DNA of 64,000 nucleotides from Gammaproteobacteria bacterium (GCA_024275115.1 JAJRZT010000065.1:4955-68954); one strand, 5' to 3'. Positions 1-26,781 are shown, counted from the first letter of the stretch. Made by a program: numbers and translations. The notes: generated by a model from the sequence alone, not told the origin.

Positions 1-525
1 CCCATCATGTAATTCATAATACCGGGATAGAGCAGAAACAGAGCCAGGGCCAGGCTGCCGCCGAACAAGGCGGTAATGGCATAGGCCGTAAGACTGATTT
101 TCATAAACTCGTGAGCCATGTCATCGTAACGCGCATCGCCACTCTTGAAACCGATGAATTCGATGACAAACACGAAAAGGGGTACCGCTAATACCAGCGC
201 ACCGAAGAACAAATGCATCTGCGCCAACACCCACACTACCGAACGACTCGAAACACCAAAACGACGATAGGATTTGTCTGTCATCTTCGGTGCCGGTTCC
301 GGCTCGGCCAGCGCATTATCTGGCTGCGCTGCCACAGCTTCACTATAGAGTGGTGACTGAGCGGCAACCTGCACATAACCCGTGGGCGCTATGTTATCCT
401 CGATGGAGGAACCTGCCCATGCTACGCCAGCTATAACCACCACCAAATACAACAACAGACCAAACAACACCCTCCACAGCCAGTGGAAATGAGAATAGCT
501 GCGCTGTGTATAATCCGCGTTCATG
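1..525 (-). CDS. Cytochrome bd family subunit I (CydA)-like membrane protein, N-terminal part. The 3' end runs off the window.
   Basis: My own translation of the minus strand from ATG at 525 gives MNADYTQRSYSHFHWLW...AQMHLFFGALVLAVPLFVFVIEFIGFKSGDARYDDMAHEFMKISL... A GAGGAG RBS lies upstream. The pattern resembles the E. coli CydA N-terminus (..AMYHFLFVPLTLG..SGK..YKDM..FW.KL). It is absent from the ORF track because it is truncated at the window edge. Confidence 0.5.
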
Positions 526-561
526 TAGATCTCCTCGACTGTGGCCTATTGATGTTACTTG

Positions 562-708
562 TCATTGTTCTGGTGTCCATTGTGCTGGGGTCAGATCCCA
601 ATTCAGGGGCAAACCCTGCATACCCATAATGGAATGATTCAGGCCATAGAAAAACAGCAACACCAACACGAATGTGACCAGCCAGATCGTGATTGTTTTT
701 AACGACAT
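562..708 (-). CDS. 48-aa single-TM peptide (MSLKTITIWLVTFVLVLLFFYGLNH...) directly upstream of the CydA-like gene
   Basis: ATG at 708 is preceded by a GAGGAA RBS and the stop TGA is at 562-564. It has a hydrophobic core and sits between two co-oriented genes. It is below the 60-aa ORF-track cutoff. Confidence 0.45.
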   Translation of the reverse strand: MSLKTITIWLVTFVLVLLFFYGLNHSIMGMQGLPLNWDLTPAQWTPEQ

Positions 709-735
709 TCGCTATTCCTCAATTTAGGGTGTGCA

Positions 736-915
736 TCAACCATGGTGGGGCACCACACCATGGGAATAGATCAACAGCCACCAGAAAAACACCAGAGTAA
801 CCACTAGCACCCCGATAAATAATCCGAAACCCCAGGTGCTACCTGCCCCTGCCCCACCTGTACTTCTCTCTGGTTCTGGTTCTGTTGCTTTTGAATCGTT
901 TTCCAGTTTTGTCAT
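736..915 (-). CDS. 59-aa single-TM peptide (MTKLENDSKATEPEPER...FGLFIGVLVVTLVFFWWLLIYSHGVVPHHG)
   Basis: ORF track 736..924. The ATG at 915 has a GGTGG RBS 5 nt upstream, so it is preferred over the GTG at 924. It is the first gene behind the minus-strand sigma-54-type promoter. Confidence 0.45.
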   Translation of the reverse strand: MTKLENDSKATEPEPERSTGGAGAGSTWGFGLFIGVLVVTLVFFWWLLIYSHGVVPHHG

Positions 916-995
916 CAATACCACCTCGTTTGCCTAGTCGAACCTCTGAATAACAATAAGGGGACGCTAAATCACTAAATGCCTTTCCACGAAAT

Positions 996-1011
996 AGCAA
1001 CAACCGCGCCA
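996..1011 (-). promoter_or_regulatory. Sigma-54 (-24/-12) type promoter for the small-peptide/CydA-like operon
   Basis: The minus strand reads CTGGCGC-GGTTG-TTGCT, against the consensus TGGCAC-N5-TTGCW. GG and GC have correct spacing and there is one mismatch. It lies about 70-85 nt upstream of the first start codon. Confidence 0.5.
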
Positions 1012-1197
1012 GCTATGCAAAATAACCATAACTCCCTGTTAATATTTGTTTTTAATTTTTTTCCTGAAATCAGAAAGGTCTGAAATTGAACAATCCATTC
1101 ACACACAACATCACCCAAACGTCATATGTTTCACTTTTTCTCCAGCTTGAGCGGAGGCCAAGTGCCCTATAAACAGAGATATACGGGTTAACAAACT

Positions 1198-1244
1198 GAA
1201 CAAACCGTTCCATGACCGGTCATGGCTTATGGAACGAAACGTTC
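1198..1244. promoter_or_regulatory. Compound palindrome, a candidate enhancer (UAS) for the NtrC-type activator
   Basis: GAACaaaccGTTC (1198-1210) is followed by the perfect 16-bp palindrome CCATGACCGGTCATGG (1210-1225) and GAACgaaacGTTC (1232-1244). It sits between the two divergent -24/-12 elements, separated from each by an AT-rich tract. Confidence 0.4.
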
Positions 1245-1322
1245 AAACCAGCGCCTGAAAACAACCAGGAATAATCACTTATATCTTTGTTTAAATAAGA
1301 TTTTTTTTGTTTCTTTATAGTG

Positions 1323-1339
1323 CGGCATAGTATGTGCAT
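1323..1339 (+). promoter_or_regulatory. Sigma-54 (-24/-12) like promoter for the HEAT-repeat operon
   Basis: cGGCAT-AGTAT-GTGCAt. The invariant GG (1324-1325) and GC (1336-1337) are at consensus spacing. It lies about 40 nt upstream of ATG 1379, which has a GGAGAA RBS. Confidence 0.4.
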
Positions 1340-1378
1340 CAGCCCAGTTCATAATGAACCACATCGGAGAACTGGAAG

Positions 1379-3784
1379 ATGACGGCCAAAAACAAAACCA
1401 TCACCGCCATTCGTGGCCTGCTCGCCAAGGGTGATGCCACAGACCGTTGCACCAGCTGTCGCGTTCTGGGGGTTCTGGGTGACAACACAGCGGTTGCCGA
1501 CCTGGTGGAACGTCTACGGGATGAGGACATCGATGTATGTGTGGATGCCGCCGAGGCTCTGGGTCGTATCGGTGATCCCGACAGCCTGACGCCTCTGCTG
1601 GAATCGTTGGATCATGACCCCAGCGGTGAAGTACGCACCGCCGTCATTAGCGCCCTGGGCACCTTTGATGATCCACGCGTCAATACTGCACTCATGCAAA
1701 TCATTGCTGATCGTCCGAATGACCTGGAATGGGATGGTGACTGGGATCCCTGGTGGGATATCCAGCTGCGCGCTGTTGAAATACTGGGACTTAAGCAGGC
1801 CTCGGAGGCAGTACCTGTATTATCGACTCTGCTGAACGATGAAGACATGCAGGACATTGAAAGTGAAACCCTTAAAGCCCTGGCGCAAATGGGTAAGCCC
1901 GGCGTAAAAATACTGGCTCACCGCTTACATCATGGCACTACCCGACAACGCCGGCGTGCCGCCCATGCCATGGCCTACGCGGACAATTCCGAGGTAACAC
2001 GTATTCTGGGGCAGTCGCTGCAAGATGCCAGTGCCGATGTGCGCATCGCCGCTATAGAAAGTCTGGCACAACTGCAAGTCAAGCACTATCTGGGTGTGAT
2101 TCTATTATTGATGCGAGACACCAGTGCCGATGTGCGAAATGCCGCACTTAAAGCGGCCATGGTATTAAGCCAACTGGAAGGCAGCAGCGGCATTACTACA
2201 GACCAACTCAAAAACTTACTGGCGGATCAAAGCAAGCAGGTTCGCTTGACCGCGCTGCAAGCCGTGGGTACTTCCACAGCAAGACCCTTACCGGTGGAAC
2301 TCACCAGTGTCATAGGTATATGTTTACAGGATCCTGATAGTGAAGTCGTGGCAATGGCGTGCGAATTATTATCCGAGGTAGCGGAACCAAGTCTATTGAA
2401 TGAGTTGATAACAATCATCAAGGACTCCAATCGTAATGAGCGCGTTAGGCGTGCAGCCGCGTTGGCCCTGGGTAAAATCACAGGTCAACATGAAAAAACC
2501 AACAGCGAAGTCATACAGGTATTCATGATGGTAGCAATGGACGAAGCGGCCGTCGTGCGGGTCGTCGCCATGCAAACTCTGGTGGAACTGGAGTCTGCTG
2601 ATCATGGCGACGAACAATCCCCTCTGGCATTCGTGATCGATTTATTACGCGGGGATTTCCTGCAAGACACACCCACACCACAACCCCATAAGTCCGACAA
2701 CATCGTTGTACCATTCACTGACACACCTGAAACGAAACCAGCTCATGGCAACACACAGCCAGAAGAGACTGCACACATGGAATATATTGACGTCGATACC
2801 GACGAGGAATTTGCCGAGCCGCCACTGGCGACCTCCACCCTGGCCGCCATCACCATAGACAACGTAGAGACTGCGATATTGCTCGATCAGCATGCGGAAC
2901 CTGAGGTGCAACAGACCGCAGAGAACGATGAGTCCTTGCAGGAATACGAGGAAATCGTGCGCAAGAATGCGGCTGCCGGCGAGTGGCTCCTGGCCAGTCG
3001 CAAGAAGCCTGCCCTGCATCAGCAGATTCGATGCACCGCCGCACGTATGCTGGCCTCCAGTAACAACAAGACAGTGATCAACGCGCTGATTGAAACACTG
3101 AGCGACCCGGATGATGAGTTACGCCGCGAATGCGCCGATGCCATTAGCATTATCGCCCATCGTCATCCGCAAACTGTCGGTCTGATGAATGCCTTTGGTG
3201 CCTTGCTAACGCAATTACACAGTGAGCACCTGGATCTACGCCTCGCCTGTCTACGTGCTCTGGAAGCCCTGGGTAATCGTGCAGCGCTGCCCATGATTTT
3301 AGAACTGGGGGATGATAAGGAAGCCAGTGTGCGCATTCAGTCCATCCGCAGCCTGGTCACATTAGCAACACAAGCTGCGGATCCACAGCAAACAGACCAC
3401 ATGGTACTGGAAGAAATCGAACCACAGGTTATTACCAGGCTATTGTTCAACAGCCTTGATGATTCCGCATCCGGGGTACGCAGCGCCACCATCCGCGGCC
3501 TGCTCAGCTGGCTCAAACACAACCCTGAACTGTGCACAGATGAGAAAATGCAAATACTGACCAACCGGATGCTGGATGCCGCGCTGAGCAGCGATGGCAG
3601 TCAGGCACGGGAAATGGGCCGCGCCCTGCGTTTGCTGGATCCAGAACTCAGTGTAGAACCAATATTGCAGCGTTTACAGGCACTGGATGACAGCGCACTG
3701 CGGCGTTTTGTTCTGGAAGTGCTGGAGGAACTGTATCGCCCTGAAACTCCAGACCCACTGTTATTAACAGGACGAGCCGCGTAA
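1379..3784 (+). CDS. HEAT / PBS-lyase-type repeat protein (801 aa) with a central acidic linker
   Basis: The motif ..VR..A..ALG.IGD.. recurs many times (e.g. VCVDAAEALGRIGDPDSLTPLL, VRTAVISALGTFDD, VRRAAALALGKI, LRRECADAISII). An acidic low-complexity segment (..EEFAEPPLA..AENDESLQEYEE..) lies mid-protein. Confidence 0.8.
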   Translation: MTAKNKTITAIRGLLAKGDATDRCTSCRVLGVLGDNTAVADLVERLRDEDIDVCVDAAEALGRIGDPDSLTPLLESLDHDPSGEVRTAVISALGTFDDPRVNTALMQIIADRPNDLEWDGDWDPWWDIQLRAVEILGLKQASEAVPVLSTLLNDEDMQDIESETLKALAQMGKPGVKILAHRLHHGTTRQRRRAAHAMAYADNSEVTRILGQSLQDASADVRIAAIESLAQLQVKHYLGVILLLMRDTSADVRNAALKAAMVLSQLEGSSGITTDQLKNLLADQSKQVRLTALQAVGTSTARPLPVELTSVIGICLQDPDSEVVAMACELLSEVAEPSLLNELITIIKDSNRNERVRRAAALALGKITGQHEKTNSEVIQVFMMVAMDEAAVVRVVAMQTLVELESADHGDEQSPLAFVIDLLRGDFLQDTPTPQPHKSDNIVVPFTDTPETKPAHGNTQPEETAHMEYIDVDTDEEFAEPPLATSTLAAITIDNVETAILLDQHAEPEVQQTAENDESLQEYEEIVRKNAAAGEWLLASRKKPALHQQIRCTAARMLASSNNKTVINALIETLSDPDDELRRECADAISIIAHRHPQTVGLMNAFGALLTQLHSEHLDLRLACLRALEALGNRAALPMILELGDDKEASVRIQSIRSLVTLATQAADPQQTDHMVLEEIEPQVITRLLFNSLDDSASGVRSATIRGLLSWLKHNPELCTDEKMQILTNRMLDAALSSDGSQAREMGRALRLLDPELSVEPILQRLQALDDSALRRFVLEVLEELYRPETPDPLLLTGRAA

Positions 3785-3887
3785 TAATGAAGCGCTATTT
3801 GATTTCAGTCTGTATCGGCTTATTTAACAAACACATTTGCATAGCATCAGGCGCAAGCGCCTCTTACCCTTATAGGAGAAACAACCC

Positions 3888-4621
3888 ATGAAGACAGCAA
3901 CTCACTTTTTACCCTTATTCCTGTCCCTGGCATTACCGCTCACTGCTCATGCGGCAGCCTACCAGGTAACTACGGTCAAGGACGGCAGCAGCATCAGCGG
4001 CAAGGTCACCTTCAGTGGTAAAGATCCGGCACCCCGCATATACAACATCACAAAAGACAACGAGGTATGTGGCACCGGCAACCGTGAAGTGGATTTTGTC
4101 AAAGTCAGCAAAGGCGGGCTTAGTGATGTCGTGGTCTACCTGGACAAAGTGAAAACTGGCAAAGCTTCACCGATGGTGCCGGCAAACTTAATCAGAAAGG
4201 CTGCGAGTTTACTCCGTTTCTGCAGGTCATGATCAACAAGAGAAATCTCGATGTCCTCAATTCGGATCCTGTTATGCATAACGTACACACCTATGAGCTC
4301 ATGGGCAGCGCTAAACGCACCGTAATCAACATCAGCCAGCCGAATCAAGGCAGCAACATTTCCAAAAAAATTAAACTGCGCCGCGGTGATGCCATGAAGA
4401 TCGAATGCGACGCACATGACTTCATGCACGGCTTTGTATTTGTCGCCCGTAACCCCTACTACGCGGTAGTGAAAAAAGATGGAAGCTTCACCATCGACAA
4501 CGTCCCAGCGGGAAAATATACCATCAATGCCTGGCACGGCACACTTGGCAAACAGAAAGCTAAAGTTTCTGTGGGCGCCAATGGCAAGGTCAGTGTGAAC
4601 TTTGCCTTCAAGGACAAGTAA
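3888..4621 (+). pseudogene. Periplasmic cupredoxin-like protein with a C-terminal carboxypeptidase-regulatory-like beta domain, split by an apparent 1-nt frameshift near 4160-4170
   Basis: ORFs 3888..4232 and 4229..4621 are two halves of one protein. Read upstream, the second frame gives ..FTDGAGKLNQKGCEFTPFLQVMINKRNLDVLNSDPVMHNVH.., continuing ..VVVYLDKVKTGKA from the first frame. It has a signal peptide (LPLTAHAAA), Cu-site-like residues (HNVH; CDAHDFMHG) and the motif DGSFTIDNVPAGKYTINAWH. Confidence 0.65.
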
Positions 4622-4779
4622 TGGGCGTCACAACAACAGACAACAGCGGCAACCCGGGTGGTTTAAACACCCGTGGTTTTTTCCGCCGCCTGACCCCCTT
4701 CGACTACCTGGTGCTGCTGGGAGGCGTCATTAACCTGCTGGTAGTGGGTTTTATCGTTGGATCCTGGCTGCTGCACTAG
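4621..4779 (+). CDS. 52-aa single-TM peptide (MGVTTTDNSGNPGGLNTRGFFRRLTPFDYLVLLGGVINLLVVGFIVGSWLLH)
   Basis: Its ATG overlaps the upstream TAA stop (TAATG at 4619-4623). Codon style is GC3-rich like its neighbours and the C-terminus is hydrophobic. It is below the ORF-track size cutoff. Confidence 0.4.
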   Translation: MGVTTTDNSGNPGGLNTRGFFRRLTPFDYLVLLGGVINLLVVGFIVGSWLLH

Positions 4780-4819
4780 CCGCAACATAACAAACAGCAA
4801 ACAAAGGGAATCCCACAAC

Positions 4820-7015
4820 ATGCCCACTGAAAGCGCAGAAATATTGGAAACCACGGAACCCTTACCTGTCTATCGATCTATCCTGCTGGCCACTGACTCC
4901 TCGGATCATGCCAACCGCAGCATCCTGGAAGCGGTGGTGGTGGCCGGACAATATAATGCCAGGGTGACAGGCACCCATGTATATGCCGCGAAGATGCATG
5001 ATATGCGCTTTCGGCAAATGGAGGGCGGGCTGCCGGAACAGTTTCGTGAAGAACAGGAACTGGAACGTCAACGGGATGTGCATGATGATCTGATCACCCG
5101 CGGCCTTTCCATCATCACGGACTCTTATCTGGATCAGGTCAGTCGCACATGTGCAACGAGCGCCATTCCTTTCGCCCGGCGCTCACTGGAAGGTAAAAAT
5201 TACCGGCAATTGGTTAATGAAACCAACTCCGGTGAGTATGATCTACTCATTCTCGGTGCGCTGGGACTCGGTGCCGTACAGGGCAGCCGCCTTGGTACGG
5301 TTTGCCATCGGGTGGCTCGACGTACGGATATCGATACCCTGATTATCAAACAACCCAAACAATCCATAGCCGCAGGGCCAATCGTAGTCGCCATTGATGG
5401 TTCCGCACGCGCTTATGGTGGACTCTTAACCGCACTTTCCTTTGCTGCACATTGGCAGGTTCCGGTCAAAGTTGTCTCCGCCTTTGACCCCTATTACCAC
5501 TATGTAGCCTTCAACCGTATCGCCGGTGTATTGTCCGAAGAGGCCGGCAAGGTATTCAAGTTCAAGGAACAGGAAAAGCTGCACGAAGAAATTATCGATT
5601 CGGGGCTGGCCAGGATCTACCAGGGCCACCTGGACGTAGCCACCTCCATCGCCGCAGAACATGGCATTGATATAGACACTGAACTACTGGTCGGCAAACC
5701 CCATCATATAATTCATGAATATGTACGCCAGCACAAACCCTCCCTGCTGGTACTGGGTAAAGTGGGCATCCATGCCGATCCGGATCTGGATATCGGTGGC
5801 AACACGGAATATTTATTAGAGGACGTGGGCTGTGCCGTATTACTGAGTCAACGCACCCACAAACCACGTCTGGATGTATTGGCCGATGTCACCACCACCT
5901 GGACTCACGAAGCCGAACAGCGTATGCAGAAGGTACCCGACTTTGTACAAAGCATGGCTCGCATGGCCATCCTGCGTTATGCCCAGGAGCTCGGCCATAC
6001 CGTCATCACGGCAAATATTGTCGAAGAAGCCACGGCGCAACTTATGCCTAGACATGCAGAAAGCGCCATGGAAGAAATCGTCAGCGCCTATGATGCCGGC
6101 GAATTAAAACGCAATGAAAACACCGTTCCTGAAATCGGTGTCGCCATGCAATGGAGCGATGCAGCAAGCACGCTACTGGACACCATTGAAGCTCCCACGG
6201 TACGCCAGAACCTGCGCATTCGTGCCGAGAAAAAGGCCCGTACCGAAGGTGCAACACAGGTAAAGAAACAACACATCGAACACTTCATCAGCGCTACAGA
6301 AGGTAAGAGCACAGGAGAATCCAGTGAAATCCATCTGCACTGGCAAGCCGATGCCCTTGCACGCCTGACACGGGTACCGGAAGGCTTTATGCGCGACAAG
6401 TCCCGAGAGCGCATCGAAGACTTCGCCCGCAGCCAGGGGATTACCCAAATTAATCTTGATGTCGCGGAACAGGGTCTGGCCGAAGCACGCAAAGCCATGG
6501 AGTCCCAAATGCAAAGTGACGGGGATGCCGCCGCGGCGGTAAAAACCAGAACCGGTGACAGCAAATGCCCCTTCGCACATATGGCACAAACCATCCCTAC
6601 GGGCGAAAAAACCAGTGAGTCTTTCGCCAGCATGGCATGGAGCCCTGAAGCGAAGCTGGAACTTGAGCGGGTACCCACGGGATTCTGCCGCGACATGACC
6701 CGCAAGGCGGCCGAAACCATTGCGGCCAAAAAAGGTACCGCTACCATTGAAGCAAGTTTTGTGGAAACCGTCATGAATGTCTTTGAGTCGGGATCCAGTA
6801 AAGCACAGGAAACCCTGCCCTGGGATGATGCCGCACGTGCGCGCATTCAGAAAGCGCCGGATATGATCTGCGGTATGTTGCTAAAAGAAATCGAAGCCTG
6901 GGCACAACGCCATGATCTGTCACACGTAAACGAGGCGGCGGTCAGTGCCGTAAAGGCACAATGGCAGGACGAAGGCCAGTTTCACCTGGAGCCCACCGAT
7001 CCACGGCGTGGTTAA
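4820..7015 (+). CDS. Tandem universal-stress-protein (UspA) domains fused to five PCP_red-like (BchB/ChlB C-terminal type) modules
   Basis: ORF track 4757..7015. The ATG at 4820 (MPTESAEIL) has an AGGGA RBS. The N-terminal half has two USP-like units (ILLATDSS..., LLILGALGLG; IVVAIDGS..., LLVLGKVGIH). The C-terminal half has five repeats built on W-x2-[ED]A-x3-L-x3-P-x-F..R....E.[FY]A...G, with the conserved W codons at 5900, 6152, 6341, 6638 and 6821. Confidence 0.8.
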   Translation: MPTESAEILETTEPLPVYRSILLATDSSDHANRSILEAVVVAGQYNARVTGTHVYAAKMHDMRFRQMEGGLPEQFREEQELERQRDVHDDLITRGLSIITDSYLDQVSRTCATSAIPFARRSLEGKNYRQLVNETNSGEYDLLILGALGLGAVQGSRLGTVCHRVARRTDIDTLIIKQPKQSIAAGPIVVAIDGSARAYGGLLTALSFAAHWQVPVKVVSAFDPYYHYVAFNRIAGVLSEEAGKVFKFKEQEKLHEEIIDSGLARIYQGHLDVATSIAAEHGIDIDTELLVGKPHHIIHEYVRQHKPSLLVLGKVGIHADPDLDIGGNTEYLLEDVGCAVLLSQRTHKPRLDVLADVTTTWTHEAEQRMQKVPDFVQSMARMAILRYAQELGHTVITANIVEEATAQLMPRHAESAMEEIVSAYDAGELKRNENTVPEIGVAMQWSDAASTLLDTIEAPTVRQNLRIRAEKKARTEGATQVKKQHIEHFISATEGKSTGESSEIHLHWQADALARLTRVPEGFMRDKSRERIEDFARSQGITQINLDVAEQGLAEARKAMESQMQSDGDAAAAVKTRTGDSKCPFAHMAQTIPTGEKTSESFASMAWSPEAKLELERVPTGFCRDMTRKAAETIAAKKGTATIEASFVETVMNVFESGSSKAQETLPWDDAARARIQKAPDMICGMLLKEIEAWAQRHDLSHVNEAAVSAVKAQWQDEGQFHLEPTDPRRG

Positions 7016-8333
7016 GCAGACGAATACCATGACCCTCGCAACCCAAACGGAAAACGATCTTTATCTGCTTGCGGTAAATATGACCCGCCGTTGCAATCTG
7101 AATTGCGCCCATTGTTATCTGGATGCAAAAACATTGCGCGAAAGCGGTGAAGATGAACTAACCACCACGGAGGTCTGCAATCTGCTGGACCAGGTGGCCG
7201 AACATAACCCGGAAACTATGGTGGTACTCACCGGCGGCGAACCTCTGATACGCAAGGATCTCGAAACCATGCTGACCCATGGTTCAGAATGTGGTCTATT
7301 CATGGTGATCGGCACCAACGGCATGATGCTTACGGAACGCCGGGTGCAATCCCTGCAGGCCGCTGGCGCCATGGGTTGTGGCATCAGCCTGGATTCCCTC
7401 GACCCTGCGCAACACGATGCCTTCCGCGGTTATCCCGGTGCCTGGCAAAAAACCATGGCAGGCATGGAAAACTGTCGTCGTCATGACCTGTCGTTTCAGG
7501 TTCATTTCTCCGTTACTGAAGCCAATGCTGCGGAAGTACCCGCCATGGTGGATTTCGCCCGTGCCTGTGGTGCGCGCGTATTGAATTTCTTTTTCCTGGT
7601 ATGCACAGGCCGTGGCGAATCCATGTCAGACATCAGCCCCATGGCCTATGAACGCGTGCTCAATCAGATACTGGATACCCAGGAACACAGTGAAGACTTG
7701 ATCATCCGTGCCCGCTGTGCACCCCACTTTCAACGCATCGCCCATCAACGCAATCCAGATTCACTGCTTACCCGAGCACAGGGTTATGACGGCAGCAGTT
7801 GTATTGCGGCCACCCACTACTGTCGCATCACACCGGAAGGTGGTGTCACTGCCTGTCCTTATATCCCCGACGAGGTGGGCAATATCCGCCAACAGACCTT
7901 CAAGGATATCTGGGAACAGGCACCGGGTCTGCAACAACTGCGTCAACCTCAACTGCAAGGCAAATGTGGACGTTGTGAATATATCCAACTGTGCGGCGGT
8001 TGCCGCGCCCGTGCCCTGGCAATGGAAGGCGACCTCATGCAGACCGACCCCTGGTGCCATTATATACCCCAGGAAGGCTCGGTCATCGTGCCTTTCACCG
8101 AACACGCTGATACGCTTCCGTGGAGTCAGGAGGCGCAACAACGACTGCAACGTATTCCCGCCTTTCTGCGCAAGATGGTGAAGAAACGTGCAGAAAGCTA
8201 CGTACGGGAACAGGGTGAGCAAGAGGTCAACATCACGCACCTGGCCACCTTGGTGGAAAAGCGCTTTGGTAAAAACGGTCCACCAGCAGCCCTCAAGGCG
8301 AAAATCAAAACACAGAGTACGCACCATGGATGA
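7008..8333 (+). CDS. Radical SAM/SPASM enzyme of NirJ/AhbC/AhbD type with a C-terminal PCP_red-like module
   Basis: It has a CNLNCAHCY (CxxxCxxC) cluster motif, a GGEPL motif and a Cys-rich SPASM region (..CPYIPDEVGNI..CGRCEYIQLCGGCRARA). The C-terminus reads LPWSQEAQQRLQRIPAFLRKMVKKRAESYVREQG. The start is GTG 7008 or ATG 7029. Confidence 0.85.
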   Translation: MVKQTNTMTLATQTENDLYLLAVNMTRRCNLNCAHCYLDAKTLRESGEDELTTTEVCNLLDQVAEHNPETMVVLTGGEPLIRKDLETMLTHGSECGLFMVIGTNGMMLTERRVQSLQAAGAMGCGISLDSLDPAQHDAFRGYPGAWQKTMAGMENCRRHDLSFQVHFSVTEANAAEVPAMVDFARACGARVLNFFFLVCTGRGESMSDISPMAYERVLNQILDTQEHSEDLIIRARCAPHFQRIAHQRNPDSLLTRAQGYDGSSCIAATHYCRITPEGGVTACPYIPDEVGNIRQQTFKDIWEQAPGLQQLRQPQLQGKCGRCEYIQLCGGCRARALAMEGDLMQTDPWCHYIPQEGSVIVPFTEHADTLPWSQEAQQRLQRIPAFLRKMVKKRAESYVREQGEQEVNITHLATLVEKRFGKNGPPAALKAKIKTQSTHHG

Positions 8334-9750
8334 TACCGACATACTCATCGCTGGTGGCGGCATCTCCGGTTTGACGCTGGCCTGGTGGCTGGCACAAAGT
8401 GGTTACCGGGTAGAAGTATGGGAAGCCGACACTCGTGTCGGCGGCAAAATCCAGAGTACGCAGCAAGACGGTTACCTGATGGAACAGGCCGCCTCGTTAT
8501 TAATGAATTTCCGTCCGGAAGTCTCGGGGCTCATTCATCACACCGGACTGGAATCCAAAAAAACCTGTCGCAATAAACAAGCCGGTGCTCACCGTTACCT
8601 GTTACATCAGGGACAGCTCACCGCCCTGCCCATGCGTATGGGCGGCCTGCTGCGTTCACCACTGTGGAGTCTGCGGGGCAAGCTGCGCCTGCTGGCAGAA
8701 CCCTTTATGCCAGTGGGCACAGACCCCGATGAGTCTGTCAGTCAATTTATTCAACGGCGTCTAGGGCGTGAAATGCTGGAAAAGGCGATGGATCCCTTTG
8801 TCGCAGGCACCCTGGCAGCAGATCCGGATCTCGCCAGCGCCGCCGCCACCCTGCCACGACTCACGGTTCTGGAAAAACGTTATGGCAGTATCACCGCCGG
8901 CATCATCGCCCACCGGCTATTACGCAAGCGCAGTGCCTGTCTCACCGATACCTTTTCATTCGAGGGCGGCATGTCTACCCTGATCGAAACCCTCGCAAAC
9001 ACCCCCGGTGTGCAGGTGCGCACTGGCTATAAGCTGCGAGAACTGGTACGCAGCCCAAAGGGCTGGCAAGCCCGGGCGGAAACCCCTCACGGCGAATATC
9101 AACTGAATACAAAGAAAACCGTGCTGGCAACACCGGCACCGGTGGCTGCACAATTATTAGATAACCTCGACACAGAGTTGGCGGAGCTACTGCGCGGTAT
9201 CCGCTATGCGCCGCTGGCGGTAGTACATATCGGCATGCAGCGCAAACACATAACACATCCACTGGATGGCACCGGCTTTCTCACACCACGCAGTGCCGGG
9301 CTGCCTATTAATGGCAATCTATGGATGAGCAGCCTGTTCAATGGGCGCGCACCACAGGGCAAGGTGTTGATGACGACTTATCTGGGGGGGGCGCGCCGCC
9401 CCGAATTGCTTGAATATGATGATAACCACCTCTTGAATCAGACCTTACAATCCCTGCAACCCCTGCTGGGCTTGCAAAGTGACCCTGAAATGGTGCAGAT
9501 TCAACGTCATACCCAAGGGCTTCCAGTGTATCATGGTGCTTATCAGGCTCGACTGCAGGCTATCGAGGAAAAAATGCATTGTTTACCGAATCTCTATTTA
9601 GAGGCCAATTATCAAGGTGGTGTATCAGTACGCGACCGCATTGCTCGCAGCTACCTGCTGGCACAACGCATCACCGCGGAGCTACCTATCACGAGAACCT
9701 ATGACAAAAAGGACAATTATGCACCCACCCTCGCCACCGACAGCAGATGA
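8326..9750 (+). CDS. FAD-dependent protoporphyrinogen/coproporphyrinogen oxidase-like protein (HemY/CgoX family)
   Basis: In-frame ATG at 8326 gives MDDTDILIAGGGISGLTLAWWL..VEVWEADTRVGGKI, a dinucleotide-binding fold. The C-terminus reads ..LYLEANYQGGVSVRDRI. The ATGGATGA overlap with the radical SAM stop argues against the 8188 start in the ORF track. Confidence 0.7.
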   Translation: MDDTDILIAGGGISGLTLAWWLAQSGYRVEVWEADTRVGGKIQSTQQDGYLMEQAASLLMNFRPEVSGLIHHTGLESKKTCRNKQAGAHRYLLHQGQLTALPMRMGGLLRSPLWSLRGKLRLLAEPFMPVGTDPDESVSQFIQRRLGREMLEKAMDPFVAGTLAADPDLASAAATLPRLTVLEKRYGSITAGIIAHRLLRKRSACLTDTFSFEGGMSTLIETLANTPGVQVRTGYKLRELVRSPKGWQARAETPHGEYQLNTKKTVLATPAPVAAQLLDNLDTELAELLRGIRYAPLAVVHIGMQRKHITHPLDGTGFLTPRSAGLPINGNLWMSSLFNGRAPQGKVLMTTYLGGARRPELLEYDDNHLLNQTLQSLQPLLGLQSDPEMVQIQRHTQGLPVYHGAYQARLQAIEEKMHCLPNLYLEANYQGGVSVRDRIARSYLLAQRITAELPITRTYDKKDNYAPTLATDSR

Positions 9751-10108
9751 GCGGGTGGATGAGAGATCTGTCCCGCATGCCAGCACTGCTGATCCCAAGC
9801 CTGACAAACCGAAAGGATTTCGTCCCTGGCCTTTGATCCTTGCAGTCACTACCGCCTTATTGCTGGTACCCCTATGGAGCAACTGGTATGCCGATCAAGT
9901 ATCCCTGCCGCGTTACTGCAAGAATCCCGAACTTAGCCTGCAACAACTGGAGCAAGTGTTACGGGAAAAACAGCCGGCTGGTGACGGCGCACGTAAACCT
10001 TACATCATTGTTGCCAAATTGTTGTTTCTGATACCTCAGAACGGTAATGAGTCCATCCCCGCCTATCTATCAAGAGTACGCGGAATACTACGTACGCAGT
10101 GTCAATGA
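9701..10108 (+). CDS. Hypothetical membrane-anchored protein
   Basis: ORF track 9617..10108, with internal ATGs at 9701 and 9719. It has a Pro/charged N-terminus and then one TM segment (WPLILAVTTALLLVPLW). It overlaps both neighbouring genes. I recognised no family. Confidence 0.4.
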   Translation: MTKRTIMHPPSPPTADERVDERSVPHASTADPKPDKPKGFRPWPLILAVTTALLLVPLWSNWYADQVSLPRYCKNPELSLQQLEQVLREKQPAGDGARKPYIIVAKLLFLIPQNGNESIPAYLSRVRGILRTQCQ

Positions 10109-12684
10109 ATCTGGTTATCCCAAAACATCAGGAGCTCCGCCGCAACTTTCTGAAACATCTGCTATCGATGCTATTGCTGGCAGCCCTGGTATTGGCTATC
10201 GGAATCTGGGCGCATTATAAGAGCAATGCAAGACTGGAGACCCACACTCGCGATCAGGCGGAAGTCCAAAACGTGGGACTGGCCTGGCAAACCCTGTCCA
10301 CCAGCATGCAATTAGTGTTTGGTGACCTGTTATTCCTTTCACAATTAAACGAATTGAATAATATGCTGGATCGTGCGGATCGACCCTGGCGCAGGGCACT
10401 CAGCGATGAATTGATAAACTTCAGCCGCGCACGCGACCTTTATGCTCAAATCCGCTTCATCGATGCGACCGGCCAGGAAATTGTGCGTGTTAACCACAAC
10501 AACGGCAAGCCGTTTTCCGAGTTAGACATAAACTTGCAGTCCAAGGTGGCGCGTTACTACTTCGGCCAGACCATGGCACTGAAACCCGGCAAAATCTTTG
10601 TATCCCCCTTTGACCTGAATCAGGAAAAGAGCCGTCTGGAACATCCCCTCAAACCCGTCATTCGCGTCGCCACCCCGCTGGTGGACGAACAAGGGCAAAA
10701 GGCCGGCATCCTGATTTTGAATATCCTTGGAGAAAAGTTGGTTCGCGGTTTCAGGGATGCTGCGGTCAACATCGCCGACCAGATTATGTTGGTCAACGCC
10801 GATGGCGACTGGTTAAGCAGTAAAAACCGTGAAGACGAGTGGGGTTTTATTCTGGGGCATGAACGCTCCTTCGCTACCCGTTTTCCGGAAGTCTGGCAAA
10901 ACATTAAAGACCGAGATCAGGGGCAGCTACATCATCAACAGGGTCTGTTTACCTTTGCCACCCTGTTTCCCGACAAGCCAACCGCAAAGAACCGGCAAAG
11001 CACACCACATATTCCTGATAGCATCGGCCAGAAAGCATACGGGCAGCGCAACTGGAAAATTATCGCTCACATTACTCCCCAGGTATTGCACATCGGTCCA
11101 CAGGGCTTTCTGCGCAATAATGCCCTGCTGTATACTGTTATAAGTTTACTGCTTGTTTTACTGGCGCTAGTAGTAGCCTGGGGTCAGGCTCGTCATCAGA
11201 TCATCCTTGCGCAACGCGATTATGAACGGCTTTTCCGTGACACCATGGAAAATGTGGATCTGGCGGTCGTGACCCTGGTTCCTGATGGAAAAATCATCTA
11301 TTGCAACGACTTCTTTTTAAACCAGACCGCCTACAAGAAACACGAGGTATTAGGTAAAGACTGGTTTGATACCTACATATCATCGGAAGACCGCAGCCAG
11401 GAACGAAAATACTTCGCTGGCATCCTGACTAAACCTGAAACCCCGGGGCGTCATAATAACCAGCTCATGACTCAACTCGGAAAGCGACGCCGGTTTCACT
11501 GGAATTACAGTGTCTCTTTAGAACACGATGGGCAGGTTCACAGTGTTACCGCCATCGGCGAAGACACAACGGAGCACCACCATACAAAGGTGGAATTGAA
11601 CAAGCTGATTAATGCCGTGGAACAAAGCCCCAATACCGTGCTGATCACCGATACTCAAGGCCTGATTGAATATGTAAATCCCAACTTCACCAACCTCACC
11701 GGTTACACAAAAGAAGAAGTCATTGGCAAAAGCCCCAGCATTTTGAAAACCGGAGAAACACCGCCTGAGGTCTATAAGGAGTTGTGGAGTACTATCTCCA
11801 ATGGCGGCGAATGGCGTGGCGAGTTTCATAATCGTAAGAAAAACGGTGAACTGTACTGGGAATTCACCATTATTTCGCCGATTGTTGACAGCAAAGGCAA
11901 CATCACAAATTTTCTTGCCGTCAAGGAAGATGTCACGGAACGCAAACGCCTACAACAGGAAGTGGAGGATCGTAACAAGGAATTGATACGTACCCAATCA
12001 CTTACGGTTATCGGCCGCATGGCCAGCATGATAGCCCATGATCTACGCAACCCTTTATCTTCGGTAAAAATGAGCCTGCAAATCCTGGGTAAGCAGAACC
12101 AGAAAAAAGAGGAGTCCGAGGAACTCAAAGACATTGCTCTGGCGCAGGTGCACTACATGGAAGAGATCCTGGAGGACATGTTGCAGTACTCACGCCCCGA
12201 TGCCTTAAAGCCGGAATGGCTGGATATCAACAAGCTACTGGATATGGCGGTGGCCCTGACGGGCAAGGCCATCAATGAGCGCAATGCCAAAATAACCACA
12301 AACTACGCCGCCCAATTACCCACTCTGCACGGTGACCCCAACAAGTTGCGCCAGGTCTTCAGCAACCTGATCATGAATGCCTTACAGGCCATGGACAATA
12401 CCGGCATCCTGCCGGAAGTCGATATTCAAACCAGCCTTGAGTTATACGACAACGAGCCCCGCGTGCGCGTTGAAATCTGCGATAACGGGCCTGGCATTAA
12501 CGGTACGGAAGCGGACAAGCTGTTTGAACCATTCTTCACCACCCGCACGAAAGGCACTGGACTGGGCCTGGCCATTGTTAAACGACTGCTGGAGCAACAT
12601 CACGGTGCCGTCCAGCTGCTACCTGGTGAAAAAGGCGGCATACGTGCCGTAGTTATTCTCCCCACGAGTCAGTTAAAGGTATGA
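10099..12684 (+). CDS. Sensor histidine kinase: periplasmic Cache-like domain, two PAS domains, HisKA and HATPase
   Basis: Two TM segments flank a roughly 290-aa extracytoplasmic domain. PAS S-box-like segments are present (..VTLVPDGKIIYCND.., ..ITDTQGLIEYVNPNFTNLTGYTKEEVIG..). The H-box is MIAHDLRNPL and the G-box is GTGLGLAIVKRL. Confidence 0.85.
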   Translation: MSMNLVIPKHQELRRNFLKHLLSMLLLAALVLAIGIWAHYKSNARLETHTRDQAEVQNVGLAWQTLSTSMQLVFGDLLFLSQLNELNNMLDRADRPWRRALSDELINFSRARDLYAQIRFIDATGQEIVRVNHNNGKPFSELDINLQSKVARYYFGQTMALKPGKIFVSPFDLNQEKSRLEHPLKPVIRVATPLVDEQGQKAGILILNILGEKLVRGFRDAAVNIADQIMLVNADGDWLSSKNREDEWGFILGHERSFATRFPEVWQNIKDRDQGQLHHQQGLFTFATLFPDKPTAKNRQSTPHIPDSIGQKAYGQRNWKIIAHITPQVLHIGPQGFLRNNALLYTVISLLLVLLALVVAWGQARHQIILAQRDYERLFRDTMENVDLAVVTLVPDGKIIYCNDFFLNQTAYKKHEVLGKDWFDTYISSEDRSQERKYFAGILTKPETPGRHNNQLMTQLGKRRRFHWNYSVSLEHDGQVHSVTAIGEDTTEHHHTKVELNKLINAVEQSPNTVLITDTQGLIEYVNPNFTNLTGYTKEEVIGKSPSILKTGETPPEVYKELWSTISNGGEWRGEFHNRKKNGELYWEFTIISPIVDSKGNITNFLAVKEDVTERKRLQQEVEDRNKELIRTQSLTVIGRMASMIAHDLRNPLSSVKMSLQILGKQNQKKEESEELKDIALAQVHYMEEILEDMLQYSRPDALKPEWLDINKLLDMAVALTGKAINERNAKITTNYAAQLPTLHGDPNKLRQVFSNLIMNALQAMDNTGILPEVDIQTSLELYDNEPRVRVEICDNGPGINGTEADKLFEPFFTTRTKGTGLGLAIVKRLLEQHHGAVQLLPGEKGGIRAVVILPTSQLKV

Positions 12685-14123
12685 TACGCACTATGGAAAA
12701 TAAATCTTTAAACACCACCGGCAACACTGCATCTGCCGGGAAACGTGACCGTATCCTGATCGTGGATGATGACGTAGCCATCTGCCGCACCCTGCAGCTG
12801 CACTTGCAGGGACAAGGTTATCTAATTGCCACGGCACACAGTATCGATGAAGGCATGCAGGCTGCCAATACACAGACACCAGATATGATCATCCTGGATA
12901 TCCGCATGCCAGGCACCTCCGGTCTCGAAGGCCTGCCCGAATTCAAAAAGATTTTTCCCAATACCCATGTGATTATAATCACCGCCTTCCAAGACATGGA
13001 GAGCACCATTCAAGCTATGCAACGAGGTGCGGAAGACTATATCCACAAGCCCATCGACATCGACGAGCTGGACCGTGTTATGAAACGCATCCTGACCAAT
13101 AATGCTGAATGCCAAATCATCGATACCGATATTCGCGCACCGGCAGCAGGCTCGGTAAGCATGGTGGGACGCAGTTGGGCCATGAAGGAGGTATTCAAGA
13201 ACATCGGCCTGGTGGCGGCTAGCCCGGTCACGGTATTGATCACTGGCGACAGCGGCACGGGCAAAGAGCTGGTCGCGCAGGCCATCCACCGTTCCGGCAG
13301 TAATCCGGACGCCCCCTTCGTCGCAATCAATTGTGCGGCTCTGGTGGAGACCCTGTTGGAATCCGATATGTTTGGCCATGAAAAAGGCGCCTTTACCGGT
13401 GCCACCAGCCAACAACAAGGCAAATTTGCCCTAGCAGAAAACGGCACGATCTTTTTGGATGAAATAGGTGAATTGTCGCCCACCATGCAAGCAAAACTGT
13501 TACGTGTGCTACAGGAGAAGGAATACACTCCCCTGGGAGCCAAGCAGCCCCGACATACTAATGCCCGAGTTATCGCCGCCACTAATGTGGATCTCAACGA
13601 GAAGGTGCAGAGCGGCGGGTTCCGTGGAGACCTGCTCTACCGTTTACAAGTGGTCACCTTGCATCTACCACCCTTGCGTGAACGCAAGGAAGATATCACT
13701 GCGCTCATCCCTGCACTACTGGCACGTATCAATCGCGATTTGCATAAAAATATCTGTCAGGTTTCCCAGGAAGTACTGGATGGGCTTCAAAGCTATGACT
13801 GGCCAGGCAATGTACGTGAACTGGAAAACAGCCTGGCCAAGGCCGTAGCCTTGTGTTCAGGCACGATTCTCACACCGGATCTGTTTGGCAATATCTGCGG
13901 TGAATCCGCAGTAACTGAAAAACCCCTGGAAGAAACGAGCCTGCAGGAAATTGAAAAGATCCATGTACTACGTGTATTGGAAGCACAAGGATGGCACAAG
14001 GGCAAAACCTGCGAGATCCTTGGCATATCCCGGCCACGCCTGCGCCGGCTGCTCAATCAATATGGGTTGCCCTCATCAGACGGCGTGATGCCGGATGATG
14101 ACATTGATTCGGACGATACATGA
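12681..14123 (+). CDS. NtrC-family sigma-54-dependent response regulator (REC, AAA+, Fis-type HTH)
   Basis: The REC domain reads ILIVDDD...DMIILDIRMPG. Walker A is GDSGTGKE and the sigma-54 contact loop is GHEKGAFTGA. The C-terminal HTH reads KTCEILGISRPRLRRLL. An ATGA overlap links it to the kinase gene. Confidence 0.9.
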   Translation: MIRTMENKSLNTTGNTASAGKRDRILIVDDDVAICRTLQLHLQGQGYLIATAHSIDEGMQAANTQTPDMIILDIRMPGTSGLEGLPEFKKIFPNTHVIIITAFQDMESTIQAMQRGAEDYIHKPIDIDELDRVMKRILTNNAECQIIDTDIRAPAAGSVSMVGRSWAMKEVFKNIGLVAASPVTVLITGDSGTGKELVAQAIHRSGSNPDAPFVAINCAALVETLLESDMFGHEKGAFTGATSQQQGKFALAENGTIFLDEIGELSPTMQAKLLRVLQEKEYTPLGAKQPRHTNARVIAATNVDLNEKVQSGGFRGDLLYRLQVVTLHLPPLRERKEDITALIPALLARINRDLHKNICQVSQEVLDGLQSYDWPGNVRELENSLAKAVALCSGTILTPDLFGNICGESAVTEKPLEETSLQEIEKIHVLRVLEAQGWHKGKTCEILGISRPRLRRLLNQYGLPSSDGVMPDDDIDSDDT

Positions 14124-14419: not shown

Positions 14420-15604
14420 TTAAAGCGTCTGGTAATAATCAATCAAGATTTTAGCCACTTCTGGGCGTGAGAATTCTTTAGGTGGCGCTTCGCCGTTGCC
14501 TAACATTTCACGTACTTTAGTTCCTGACAAAAGAACAAAGTCATCTTTTTCATGATCAGGTGCTTCACGCATCATCACCACTTTATTCAGTTTCTTCGAC
14601 CAGGCGGTGTGATCTGCCATGAACATTTCAATGTCCATTGCACCCTTAGGCACTTCGTCTTCGAAAATAGTTTGTGCATCAAAGGCACCGTAGTAATCGC
14701 CCACACCGGCGTGGTCACGACCAATGATAAAGTGCGTTGCACCCATATTTTGACGGAAGTAAGCATGTAACACCGCTTCACGTGGACCAGCATAAAGCAT
14801 ATCGAAACCGTAACCCGTTACCATTGCGCTGTTTGCAGGGAAATAAACTTCTACCATTTTACGAATAGCAGCGTCACGAACAGGAGCAGGGATGTCACCT
14901 TTTTTCAATTTACCCAACAACATGTGAATAACCAGGCCATCACAACCTAAACGATCCATTGCCATGTGGCAAAGTTCTTCATGTGCAAGGTGCATTGGAT
15001 TACGCGTTTGGAAAGCAACAACTTTTTTCCAGCCATGCTCAGAAATTTCATTACGAATCTCAACAGCGGTACGGAAAGTATCTGGGAATTCAGTTTGGAA
15101 GTAGCTAAAATTTAAGACCTGAATCGGGCCGGAAACAGCCGTTTGACCCTGACCATTAAATGCAGCAACACCTGGGTGTTCCATATCATCCGTACGATAA
15201 ACTTTATCGGTCATCGTTTTCATTTGCGCGTCCGTTACTTGCTCAATGGCTTCAACATCCATAACAGCAATAACAGGGTTACCGTCCACATTCGGGTCAC
15301 GCAACGCAATACGTTTTGCATCACCAATGGCATCGGCATTTTCTAATAAGCACATTACTGGAACGGGGAAGAATGAACCGTCGGTAAGGGTCATTTTTTC
15401 TGCGGCACCCATTGCATCAGCAACGCTCATAAAACCTTTTAACGGGCTAAAATAACCACCAGCCATCATTACTGCATTACCGGCAGCTTGTGAACTGATC
15501 ACGACAGAAGGTAGAGACTTCGCTTCTTTGCTCAGCTTGTCATGTTCGGCAACGTCATAGACGAAGCGCGGTTGTAATTCATCGGAACCTATTGGTTTAA
15601 TCAT
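14420..15604 (-). CDS. sat: Sulfate adenylyltransferase (ATP sulfurylase)
   Basis: Motifs QTRNPMHLAHEEL and HFIIGRDHAGVG. The start is taken at MIKPIGSDEL (ATG 15604, GAGGA upstream) rather than 15619. Confidence 0.9.
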   Translation of the reverse strand: MIKPIGSDELQPRFVYDVAEHDKLSKEAKSLPSVVISSQAAGNAVMMAGGYFSPLKGFMSVADAMGAAEKMTLTDGSFFPVPVMCLLENADAIGDAKRIALRDPNVDGNPVIAVMDVEAIEQVTDAQMKTMTDKVYRTDDMEHPGVAAFNGQGQTAVSGPIQVLNFSYFQTEFPDTFRTAVEIRNEISEHGWKKVVAFQTRNPMHLAHEELCHMAMDRLGCDGLVIHMLLGKLKKGDIPAPVRDAAIRKMVEVYFPANSAMVTGYGFDMLYAGPREAVLHAYFRQNMGATHFIIGRDHAGVGDYYGAFDAQTIFEDEVPKGAMDIEMFMADHTAWSKKLNKVVMMREAPDHEKDDFVLLSGTKVREMLGNGEAPPKEFSRPEVAKILIDYYQTL

Positions 15605-15813
15605 CCTGTGTATCCTCATTGTTGGTTATGGCCTCGCCGTTGACTGCAAGAAGCGAGCGACACATTTCGTCATTTTAAAATCTGTAAATACTGGAATGGT
15701 TCTACGAACCTGCTCCAGTACCCATAAAAAAGTACGCCAACTATACAGCACTCTATACTCAGGTGAATATTAAGGTAATTTATAAGGCCATAGATGCGCT
15801 AAGCTATTGAAAT

Positions 15814-21108: not shown

Positions 21109-21110
21109 GA

Positions 21111-26739: not shown

Positions 26740-26781
26740 CCAGGGTAAAATGAATATTCTTTTTTCGCCATGAGTGCTCTC

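Follow-up and report, generated by a model that had tools for sequence, protein, structure and literature searches.

A predicted haem module linked to a cytochrome bd-like oxidase of the OR-N2 type in Proteobacteria that oxidise sulfur or iron

What would a radical S-adenosylmethionine (SAM) enzyme, a HemY-like oxidase and a series of PCP_red modules be doing next to a cytochrome bd-like oxidase? The question is raised by a locus at the beginning of a 64,000-nucleotide stretch of DNA from a Gammaproteobacteria bacterium (GCA_024275115.1, JAJRZT010000065.1:4955-68954), which was analysed as a whole and is called the window below. A first-pass annotation, made from the sequence alone, had offered two options for this locus: a route dedicated to the synthesis, modification or insertion of a cofactor of the bd-like enzyme, or a stress module that senses and chaperones tetrapyrroles. 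Because the genes concerned stay linked to the oxidase operon (31 of 40 loci), we favour the first option over the second. With about even confidence, we propose that they form a dedicated, sigma-54-induced module for the supply, modification or loading of haem, which would serve an OR-N2-type oxidase complex and whose chemistry is predicted.

The trio and the neighbouring oxidase

The question turns on three genes of the plus strand, hereafter the trio, one of which encodes a tandem universal stress protein (USP), and on three genes of the minus strand:

1-524, minus strand: CydA-like protein, N-terminal 174 residues, the gene running off the start of the window (PF01654, 1.5e-6, 27.5 bits for a cut-off of 26.2)
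562-708, minus strand: single-transmembrane peptide of 48 residues (63% identical to a 50-residue peptide of the Endoriftia locus; present in most divergent loci; one hydrophobic segment)
736-924, minus strand: single-transmembrane peptide of about 55-62 residues whose C-terminal HHG is conserved, encoded at the head of the minus operon (resembles a 45-residue peptide of locus L002 and a 55-codon gene of locus L084)
4757/4820-7015, plus strand: tandem-USP protein with five PCP_red modules, 731 residues (Usp 5.2e-25 over two stretches, PCP_red 9.9e-44)
7008-8333, plus strand: radical SAM/SPASM enzyme with one C-terminal PCP_red module, 441 residues (Radical_SAM 3.6e-19, SPASM 1.4e-8, PCP_red 1.3e-14)
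8326-9750, plus strand: HemY-family FAD oxidase, 474 residues (Amino_oxidase 2.6e-52, TIGR00562)

We mapped all components of the region on 80 loci by tblastn and took counts from the 40 of them with 8 kb or more of sequence on each flank:

Radical SAM enzyme: 39 of 40 loci
HemY-like oxidase: 37 of 40 loci
EbdC-like protein: 32 of 40 loci
CydA-like protein: 31 of 40 loci
Periplasmic protein: 26 of 40 loci
Kinase: 26 of 40 loci
Activator: 26 of 40 loci
Small membrane protein: 25 of 40 loci
HEAT-repeat protein: 23 of 40 loci

From these counts, the conserved core consists of the USP/PCP_red, radical SAM and HemY-like proteins. Only the gammaproteobacterial form adds the HEAT, cupredoxin-like periplasmic and small membrane proteins. 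A scan for the USP/PCP_red protein in one genome per species gave at least 581 confirmed matches. Among the matches listed, the carriers include Sedimenticola, Thiodiazotropha, Thiolapillus, tubeworm and clam symbionts and Parabeggiatoa, as well as Gallionella, Nitrosomonadales, Zetaproteobacteria and Parvularculaceae. Several hundred sulfur- and iron-oxidising species of Proteobacteria carry the trio, as does an Acidobacteria metagenome-assembled genome (MAG).

In 31 of the 40 loci the trio lies beside an operon for a CydA-like protein, cytochrome c and an EbdC-like protein, in at least four arrangements: the oxidase operon is divergent (Endoriftia type and the window), directly upstream and co-directional (L010, L047, L085) or downstream (L073). 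Such linkage is found in Gamma-, Beta-, Zeta- and Alphaproteobacteria as well as in the Acidobacteria MAG. Since it survives rearrangements across classes and in a second phylum, it indicates, at the level of gene order, a functional tie between trio and oxidase, and the varying arrangement argues against mere inherited gene order. Recurrence of the gene set as a neighbourhood, on which the first-pass annotation had staked its proposal, is therefore found in many genomes. The full neighbourhood is conserved in a close relative whose intergenic DNA is 95% identical (L084) and in the contigs of Candidatus Endoriftia persephone.

We then looked at the oxidase operon itself. The CydA-like fragment of the window is identical to a 631-residue protein of L084 at 165 of 174 positions. 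Its PF01654 match runs from residues 93 to 173 (model positions 2-82), and its His104, in the sequence QMHLFF, falls on the haem-ligand histidine of solved bd oxidases. Alignments of the Endoriftia orthologue with such oxidases cover mostly the N-terminal part (residues 91-255 for 5DOQ, up to 326 for 9R2G), with QMH on the ligand histidine and FFLES on the conserved glutamate region. A crude hydropathy scan gave 13-16 hydrophobic segments for the 631-residue orthologue, and a homologue search with the CydA-like protein returned close relatives only (at least 76% identity). In Endoriftia, the minus operon encodes small peptides, a 630-residue CydA-like protein, a 275-residue cytochrome c, an 800-residue multi-haem c/EB_dh protein and SCO1/SenC; in L084 it encodes two peptides, the CydA-like protein of 631 residues, a cytochrome c of 265 residues, a cytochrome c/EB_dh protein of 809 residues and a CCP_MauG peroxidase. 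The gene at the far end varies, being of the SCO1/SenC copper chaperone type in Endoriftia (L001 1-430) and L010 (3936-4646) and a di-haem CCP_MauG in L084 (1-1016). The two tiny transmembrane peptides and the CydA-like membrane protein that had been described in the window are all there, and the 48-residue peptide is probably a small oxidase subunit.

In the description by Murali, Gennis and Hemp (2021, bioRxiv 10.1101/2021.01.16.426971), OR-N2 operons combine a 14-helix CydA homologue with several cytochromes c and a homologue of EbdC. The loci L001-L003 and L084 have an operon of this composition, with several cytochromes c, an EbdC (EB_dh) homologue and only one CydA-like gene, and their protein of about 630 residues with many transmembrane segments shares with canonical CydA only the N-terminal haem/oxygen-site helices. 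On these grounds the divergent operon fits the OR-N2-type cytochrome bd-like family, which has a name and is uncharacterised; the CydA-like nature proposed at first holds, with the correction that the family had already been named. OR-N2 was described mainly from Nitrospirota (Murali et al. 2021), whereas it is found here in sulfur- and iron-oxidising Proteobacteria. In the portions of the text and supplementary files of Murali et al. 2021 that were searched, the USP/PCP_red, radical SAM, HemY-like, HEAT and two-component genes are not mentioned. OR-N enzymes are still called uncharacterised in later papers (PMC10839748, PMC9040806), and their cofactors, subunits and activity have never been determined (PMC10839748, PMC9040806; bioRxiv 10.1101/2021.01.16.426971). 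We found no paper that describes the trio or connects it with the oxidase, and among the curated families of NCBIfam there is none covering the trio and no model for the CydA-like, USP/PCP_red or peptide genes.

Two variants depart from the gene order of the window. In the Acidobacteria MAG (GCA_001767445.1, L085 2264-15748), the order is cytochrome c, a CydA-like protein fused to cytochrome c (820 residues), an MrpD-like antiporter subunit (491 residues), cytochrome c/EB_dh and a further cytochrome c, with the trio directly behind; this MrpD-like bd operon recalls the MrpD-containing 'TO_2' complex of Manganitrophus (PMC9040806). In Gallionellaceae and Zetaproteobacteria (L047 6888-9690; L039, L073, L083), a beta-propeller of 585 residues (matches to YNCE, Lactonase and, weakly, Cytochrom_D1) and a cytochrome c of 320 residues stand between the oxidase genes and the trio, in the place that the HEAT and periplasmic genes occupy in the gammaproteobacterial form.

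What the trio may do

The radical SAM enzyme was scored against curated families. It reached 320.9 bits on NirJ2 (TIGR04055) and 305.1 bits on AhbD (TIGR04545), two equivalogs whose curated cut-off is 500 bits, compared with 177 bits on AhbC, 173 on NirJ and 118 on PqqE. Judged from its sequence, it is the nearest relative of the haem b synthase family and a non-member by the NCBI criterion. Its translation, which likely starts at the ATG at 7029, keeps the CX3CX2C motif (CNLNCAHC) and eight cysteines of the SPASM region, and it matches PF04055 and PF13186. The orthologues of L001-L083 fall into two size classes, one of about 400-470 residues with a single PCP_red module, like that of the window, and one of about 650-750 residues with two to four modules.

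For the HemY-like protein, TIGR00562 gives 253.9 bits, above its cut-off of 97.85, and the best matches in the PDB are PgoX of M. xanthus (2IVD, 6.5e-59, residues 5-450) and the B. subtilis enzyme (3I6D, 6.5e-44). Its gene overlaps that of the radical SAM enzyme at 8326-8333 and is translationally coupled to it. Such a pairing has precedent, because AhbD is found with a HemY-type CgoX in some bacteria devoid of the rest of the Ahb pathway (PMC13564367). These coproporphyrin-dependent variants likewise combine a HemY-family oxidase and an AhbD-type radical SAM enzyme without other Ahb genes, and they serve housekeeping haem synthesis in anaerobic or facultative Gram-positive bacteria (PMC13564367). 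In contrast, the pair studied here is overlapping, sigma-54 regulated and oxidase-linked, lacks a ferrochelatase and has an oxidase nearer to PgoX than to Bacillus CgoX. A second comparison is with the haem d1 genes (nirFDLGHJEN) beside nirS and with the Ahb pathway (AhbABCD), where a NirJ/AhbC/AhbD-family radical SAM enzyme likewise stands beside its presumed client enzyme. Unlike these systems, the locus has no homologues of NirE, NirDLGH/AhbAB or NirN/NirF, contains a HemY-family flavoenzyme and PCP_red modules instead, and its radical SAM enzyme misses the equivalog cut-offs.

For the PCP_red modules, each was scanned singly against PF08369 (gathering score 32.5 bits). Modules 1 to 5 of the USP protein gave 56.5, 22.9, 48.2, 42.6 and 22.5 bits, so that modules 1, 3 and 4 exceed the gathering score and modules 2 and 5 lie below it with full-length matches at E of about 1e-4. 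For the sixth, which the radical SAM enzyme carries, the score was 59.1 bits. All six modules foreseen by the first-pass annotation thus match PF08369, the family of the C-terminal domain of BchB/ChlB in dark-operative protochlorophyllide reductase (DPOR), and four of them (three of the USP protein and that of the radical SAM enzyme) do so above the gathering score. They differ from the DPOR subunit in having no nitrogenase-like catalytic body: five are repeated on a tandem-USP protein and one is carried by a radical SAM enzyme.

The first USP domain has the G-x2-G-x9-G-T ATP-binding motif. A fold search with the USP/PCP_red protein matched only tandem USPs, e.g. UspE, Rv2623 and ATP-bound TTHA0350, and the arrangement between domains in its model is of low confidence (predicted template modelling score, pTM, 0.46). 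The motif C583-P-F is invariant in an alignment of 16 sequences, CP(F/L/M) is present in 69 of 72 orthologues, and the motif sits in a linker predicted as disordered, a setting reminiscent of haem regulatory motifs. The homologue clusters of this protein number more than 4000 and are about 60% identical over the full length. Because a hydropathy scan gave no hydrophobic segments in the USP/PCP_red, radical SAM and HemY-like proteins, the trio is probably cytoplasmic.

Taken together, these data can be assembled into a working scheme. The region would be one regulon made of two divergent sigma-54 operons. The minus operon would encode an OR-N2-type oxidase complex, with two small transmembrane peptides and a CydA-like protein of about 630 residues, joined in close relatives by a cytochrome c and a membrane-anchored multi-haem c/EbdC-type haem b subunit. 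The plus operon would provide accessory and control genes, and its core would act as a cytoplasmic, private terminal-haem line for the oxidase complex. In this line, the AhbD-like radical SAM enzyme would carry out an oxygen-independent propionate-to-vinyl step on a coproporphyrin-type substrate and the HemY-family flavoenzyme would oxidise the porphyrinogen ring, the two catalysing consecutive late steps. The six PCP_red modules, of which the ATP-binding tandem-USP scaffold bears five and the radical SAM enzyme the other, would work as lids that hold the reactive tetrapyrrole and pass it on; the Cys-Pro motif of the scaffold may be a transient haem site, and the product would then be loaded into the oxidase subunits. 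The HEAT, cupredoxin-like periplasmic and small membrane proteins may be scaffold or copper-handling parts, and induction of both operons, through TGAAC-N5-GTTCA sites, would fall to the Cache/PAS kinase and the NtrC-type activator. The general logic is familiar: cofactor genes beside their respiratory enzyme are known from haem d1 and haem a, and dedicated proteins that modify or deliver haem (CtaB, CtaA, HemW) serve terminal oxidases or respiratory enzymes. The likeness to the haem o/a synthases (CtaB, CtaA) and to HemW is one of logic, there being no sequence relationship.

Several observations weigh against this scheme. The radical SAM enzyme stays under both equivalog cut-offs, and its reaction may therefore differ from those of AhbD and NirJ2. 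The HemY-like protein resembles PgoX more closely than the B. subtilis CgoX, so that its substrate may be of the copro or of the proto type. The cluster contains no ferrochelatase, haem exporter or other haem gene. To our knowledge, contact of PCP_red with a tetrapyrrole is established within DPOR only, and we know of no function for the free-standing PCP_red proteins (2KRU, 2L09). Finally, 9 of the 40 loci have no CydA-like gene within 10 kb. A Sulfuricaulis MAG (L004 678-9095), in which no CydA-like gene lies within 10 kb, has the trio facing an operon for a molybdoenzyme of the NarG/EBDH type. This operon encodes an alpha subunit of 1182 residues, a beta subunit with Fer4_11, a chaperone (Nitrate_red_del), a gamma subunit of the cytochrome c2/EB_dh kind and a protein homologous to the periplasmic beta-sandwich protein. 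Given this operon and its EB_dh gamma subunit, the true client of the trio may be the EbdC-type haem b subunit instead of CydA.

Other explanations were weighed against the same data. One of them changes the product: the trio would make a non-canonical haem or another metallo-tetrapyrrole used only by OR-N-type bd-like oxidases or by EbdC-type subunits, in a possible parallel with the haem d1 genes beside nirS and the haem o/a synthases beside haem-copper oxidases. A radical SAM enzyme that is related to AhbD/NirJ2 yet remains below both cut-offs would agree with this view, as would the tight linkage to one enzyme family across phyla, the lack of NCBIfam models for the CydA-like, USP/PCP_red and peptide genes, and the fact that OR-N cofactors await determination (PMC10839748; bioRxiv 10.1101/2021.01.16.426971). 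However, no sequence feature specifies a new product, ordinary late haem b chemistry can explain both enzymes, and the residues of the oxygen-reduction site align with those of canonical bd oxidases. We regard this explanation as somewhat unlikely, and take the same reserved view of the related idea that the PCP_red repeats are a new class of carrier domains channelling an unknown tetrapyrrole cofactor from enzyme to client.

The features of the USP/PCP_red protein may also be read in terms of sensing. The trio would then be a haem chaperone or sensor without net synthesis, in which the radical SAM enzyme acts like HemW, the HemN paralogue that delivers haem to respiratory enzymes and that offers a precedent for a radical SAM haem chaperone, and the USP/PCP_red protein buffers or senses free haem. 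The Cys-Pro motif in its disordered linker, the ATP motif of the first USP domain and the fold resembling ATP-bound TTHA0350 fit such a role. Three points speak against it: the intact CX3CX2C and SPASM cysteines suggest catalysis, a HemY-family oxidase passing its curated cut-off has no obvious task in a chaperone, and the trio occurs without the kinase/activator pair in L010, L047 and L085, which argues that it is not primarily a regulatory input. This explanation thus appears unlikely to us.

It is improbable that the trio consists of housekeeping late-haem genes (a HemN-like step and HemY) lying by chance near a haem-rich oxidase operon. The HemY-like protein does pass TIGR00562 and both chemistries fit consecutive steps of normal haem synthesis, but the radical SAM enzyme is of the AhbD and not the HemN type, the genes belong to a sigma-54 operon in the gammaproteobacterial form, and their position beside the oxidase operon is kept through rearrangements and across phyla. 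Moreover, PCP_red modules are fused to them or lie alongside, and we know of no report of such modules for housekeeping haem enzymes. As for a SPASM enzyme maturing a small encoded peptide, in the manner of ribosomally synthesised and post-translationally modified peptides, SPASM enzymes often modify peptides and a 52-residue open reading frame (ORF) lies shortly upstream with the USP gene between, but the peptides are single transmembrane helices lacking a Cys/Ser/Thr-rich core and are absent from minimal operons, and models of tetrapyrrole enzymes give the SPASM enzyme about 200 bits more than those of peptide maturases, so that this is very improbable and the small peptides were rejected as precursors on their sequence features and on that absence.

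Regulation of the two operons

If the trio and the oxidase serve a common purpose, how would they be expressed together? The dedicated haem module that we prefer supposes control by sigma-54, and the intergenic region contains the following elements:

996-1011, minus strand: sigma-54 -24/-12 element TGGCGCGGTTGTTGCT, facing the oxidase operon (one mismatch to TGGCAC-N5-TTGCW)
1095-1109, no strand assigned: palindrome copy TGAACAATCCATTCA, candidate upstream activator site (same 15-mer in L007 and L011)
1197-1211 and 1231-1245, no strand assigned: palindrome copies TGAACAAACCGTTCC and GGAACGAAACGTTCA (inverted repeat of the TGAAC-N5-GTTCA family)
1322-1337, plus strand: weaker sigma-54-like element CGGCATAGTATGTGCA, 42 nucleotides before the HEAT start (GG-N10-GC core kept, three mismatches)

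The good -24/-12 element announced before the divergent operon is indeed TGGCGCGGTTGTTGCT. When up to two mismatches are allowed, the sigma-54 pattern was found 43 times in the window for 45.7 expected, i.e. with no excess over chance, so the weight of the element rests on its position and on its conservation in relatives. We thus surveyed 37 related divergent intergenic regions, including that of the window, for GG-N10-GC elements with at most two mismatches, with shuffled controls. An element faces the oxidase operon in 35 of the 37 regions and the HEAT operon in 34, compared with about 1.5 per strand in the shuffled sequences. In most of the 34 loci, TGGCAY/TGGTAC-N5-xTGCW lies 21-125 nucleotides before the HEAT gene, and CGGCATAGTATGTGCA occupies the same position. 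No sigma-70-like site was found in the window between 925 and 1378. These results support the sigma-54 control that had been proposed and extend it to both operons, since elements face each of them in relatives.

The words most enriched in the related intergenic regions correspond to the palindrome TGAAC-N5-GTTCA, of which the 33 regions examined of the divergent type contain, between them, 25 copies with exactly 5 nucleotides as spacer. The three copies of the window are slightly degenerate and all three are intact in L084. We infer from this conservation that they are candidate binding sites of the NtrC-type activator of the cluster. A central palindrome, CCATGACCGGTCATGG (1211-1226), was dropped as an activator site, as it has three changes in L084 despite the 95% identity of the intergenic DNA.

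The Cache-PAS kinase and the NtrC-type activator noted at first were both confirmed:

10099-12684, plus strand: sensor histidine kinase (sensor domain, two PAS, HisKA and HATPase in Pfam)
12681-14123, plus strand: NtrC-type sigma-54 activator (receiver, Sigma54_activat 4.4e-67 and HTH_8 in Pfam)

The kinase has two transmembrane segments around a periplasmic Cache-like domain, followed by two PAS domains, HisKA and HATPase; its PAS region scores 208 bits on the NifL PAS model TIGR02938, under the cut-off of 242 bits. This domain composition fits an input combining a periplasmic ligand and redox. The activator scores 413.7 bits on the NtrC model, under the cut-off of 558.6.

Accessory genes, genomic surroundings and implications

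Four further genes complete the plus operon:

1379-3784, plus strand: HEAT/PBS-lyase-type repeat protein of 801 residues with an acidic central linker (HEAT_2 6.6e-62, HEAT_PBS 3.4e-17 in Pfam)
3888-4621, plus strand: periplasmic cupredoxin-like gene, broken (ORFs 3888-4232 and 4229-4621; signal peptide, middle domain, C-terminal beta-sandwich)
4621-4779, plus strand: single-transmembrane peptide of 52 residues (conserved motif)
9617-10108, plus strand: small single-transmembrane protein with two conserved cysteines (conservation in related loci)

All nine plus-strand genes of the co-directional, nearly gap-free string from 1379 to 14123 were found, as were its three stop/start overlaps (TAATG at 4619-4623, ATGGATGA at 8326-8333 and ATGA at 12681-12684), and Pfam agrees with the HEAT, USP/PCP_red, radical SAM/SPASM, HemY-like, kinase and activator assignments of the first-pass annotation. 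Its statement that every recognisable part points to tetrapyrroles went too far. The HEAT, USP and two-component proteins are not specific for tetrapyrroles, and the cupredoxin-like protein, together with the SCO1/SenC gene of relatives, points to copper instead. The association of the cupredoxin-like protein with a variable SCO1/SenC or CCP_MauG gene hints at a copper component.

The periplasmic gene is split by a single missing T (TTT to TT) near 4165-4167, as judged by alignment with L084, whose orthologue is one ORF of 244 residues with 96% identity in the downstream part of the protein. The homology to an orthologue of 246 residues changes frame between about 4160 and 4190, and the products are ORFs of 114 and 130 residues, of which the public record annotates only the second. 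Two explanations are considered for this one-nucleotide deletion, an error of sequencing and a lesion that arose very recently. A Pfam scan of the protein gave no cupredoxin domain and only a C-terminal CarboxypepD_reg/fn3_3 beta-sandwich. We thus examined the AlphaFold2 model of the intact 244-residue orthologue P0241 (predicted local distance difference test score, pLDDT, 81; pTM 0.79). Its middle domain of about 100 residues matched plastocyanin, amicyanin, pseudoazurin and NirK/CuA cupredoxin domains with a Foldseek probability of 1.0, at a template modelling score of about 0.6 on the target and E values of only 1e-4 to 1e-2. H131, H134 and C174-x2-H177-x2-M180 are invariant in 26 homologues. 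The cupredoxin-like label given at first is therefore supported by the modelled fold and the ligand pattern and not by a family model, and metal binding is putative.

For the HEAT protein, no signal peptide is apparent in the sequence, and it matched the CpcE/CpcF/NblB models only partially and far under their cut-offs. The 52-residue peptide has a counterpart between the periplasmic and USP genes in 13 of the 13 loci examined, and its family shows the motif DY.A.V.G.IN..VIG.IVGYWLL. The small membrane protein, whose start is probably nearer to 9750-9806 than to the beginning of the ORF, is 43% identical to a 109-residue protein of the Endoriftia locus and has no family match in Pfam or in curated family models.

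Beyond the locus, the window contains sulfur-oxidation genes at 14420-15619 (ATP sulfurylase) and 25876-30906 (a Qmo/Hdr-like set made up of a protein with a CCG domain, an HdrA-like protein that includes an MvhD/FlpD domain, and an FAD protein). Genes of these kinds are characteristic of Gammaproteobacteria that oxidise sulfur and have a reverse adenosine 5'-phosphosulfate pathway, and the window is derived from a sulfur oxidiser. Cytochrome c maturation genes (CcmH/CycH-like, CcmF, CcmC-type) lie at 45565-51897, some 30 kb from the oxidase locus, and a protein of 351 residues at 53417-54472 has two cytochrome c domains fused to DUF302 and matches the cytochrome c/EB_dh query weakly in tblastn (28%). 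Other genes encode a resistance-nodulation-division (RND) efflux pump with its outer-membrane factor (17983-22427), a molybdopterin oxidoreductase of 974 residues (34158-37082), MoaA (57109-58119) and a dCache-GGDEF diguanylate cyclase (58621-60360).

OR-N bd-like oxidases, considered the chief or even the sole terminal oxidases of high affinity in nitrite oxidisers, are also widespread in sulfur-oxidising symbionts and in iron oxidisers. The promoter and palindrome architecture gives a handle for expression studies, and co-regulated tetrapyrrole enzymes beside an OR-N oxidase provide a testable lead on the cofactor that it carries and on the delivery of that cofactor. If the proposed haem module proves true, it would give a first function to the free-standing PCP_red domain outside its original context, and a first function to a very abundant and highly conserved family of 'universal stress proteins'.

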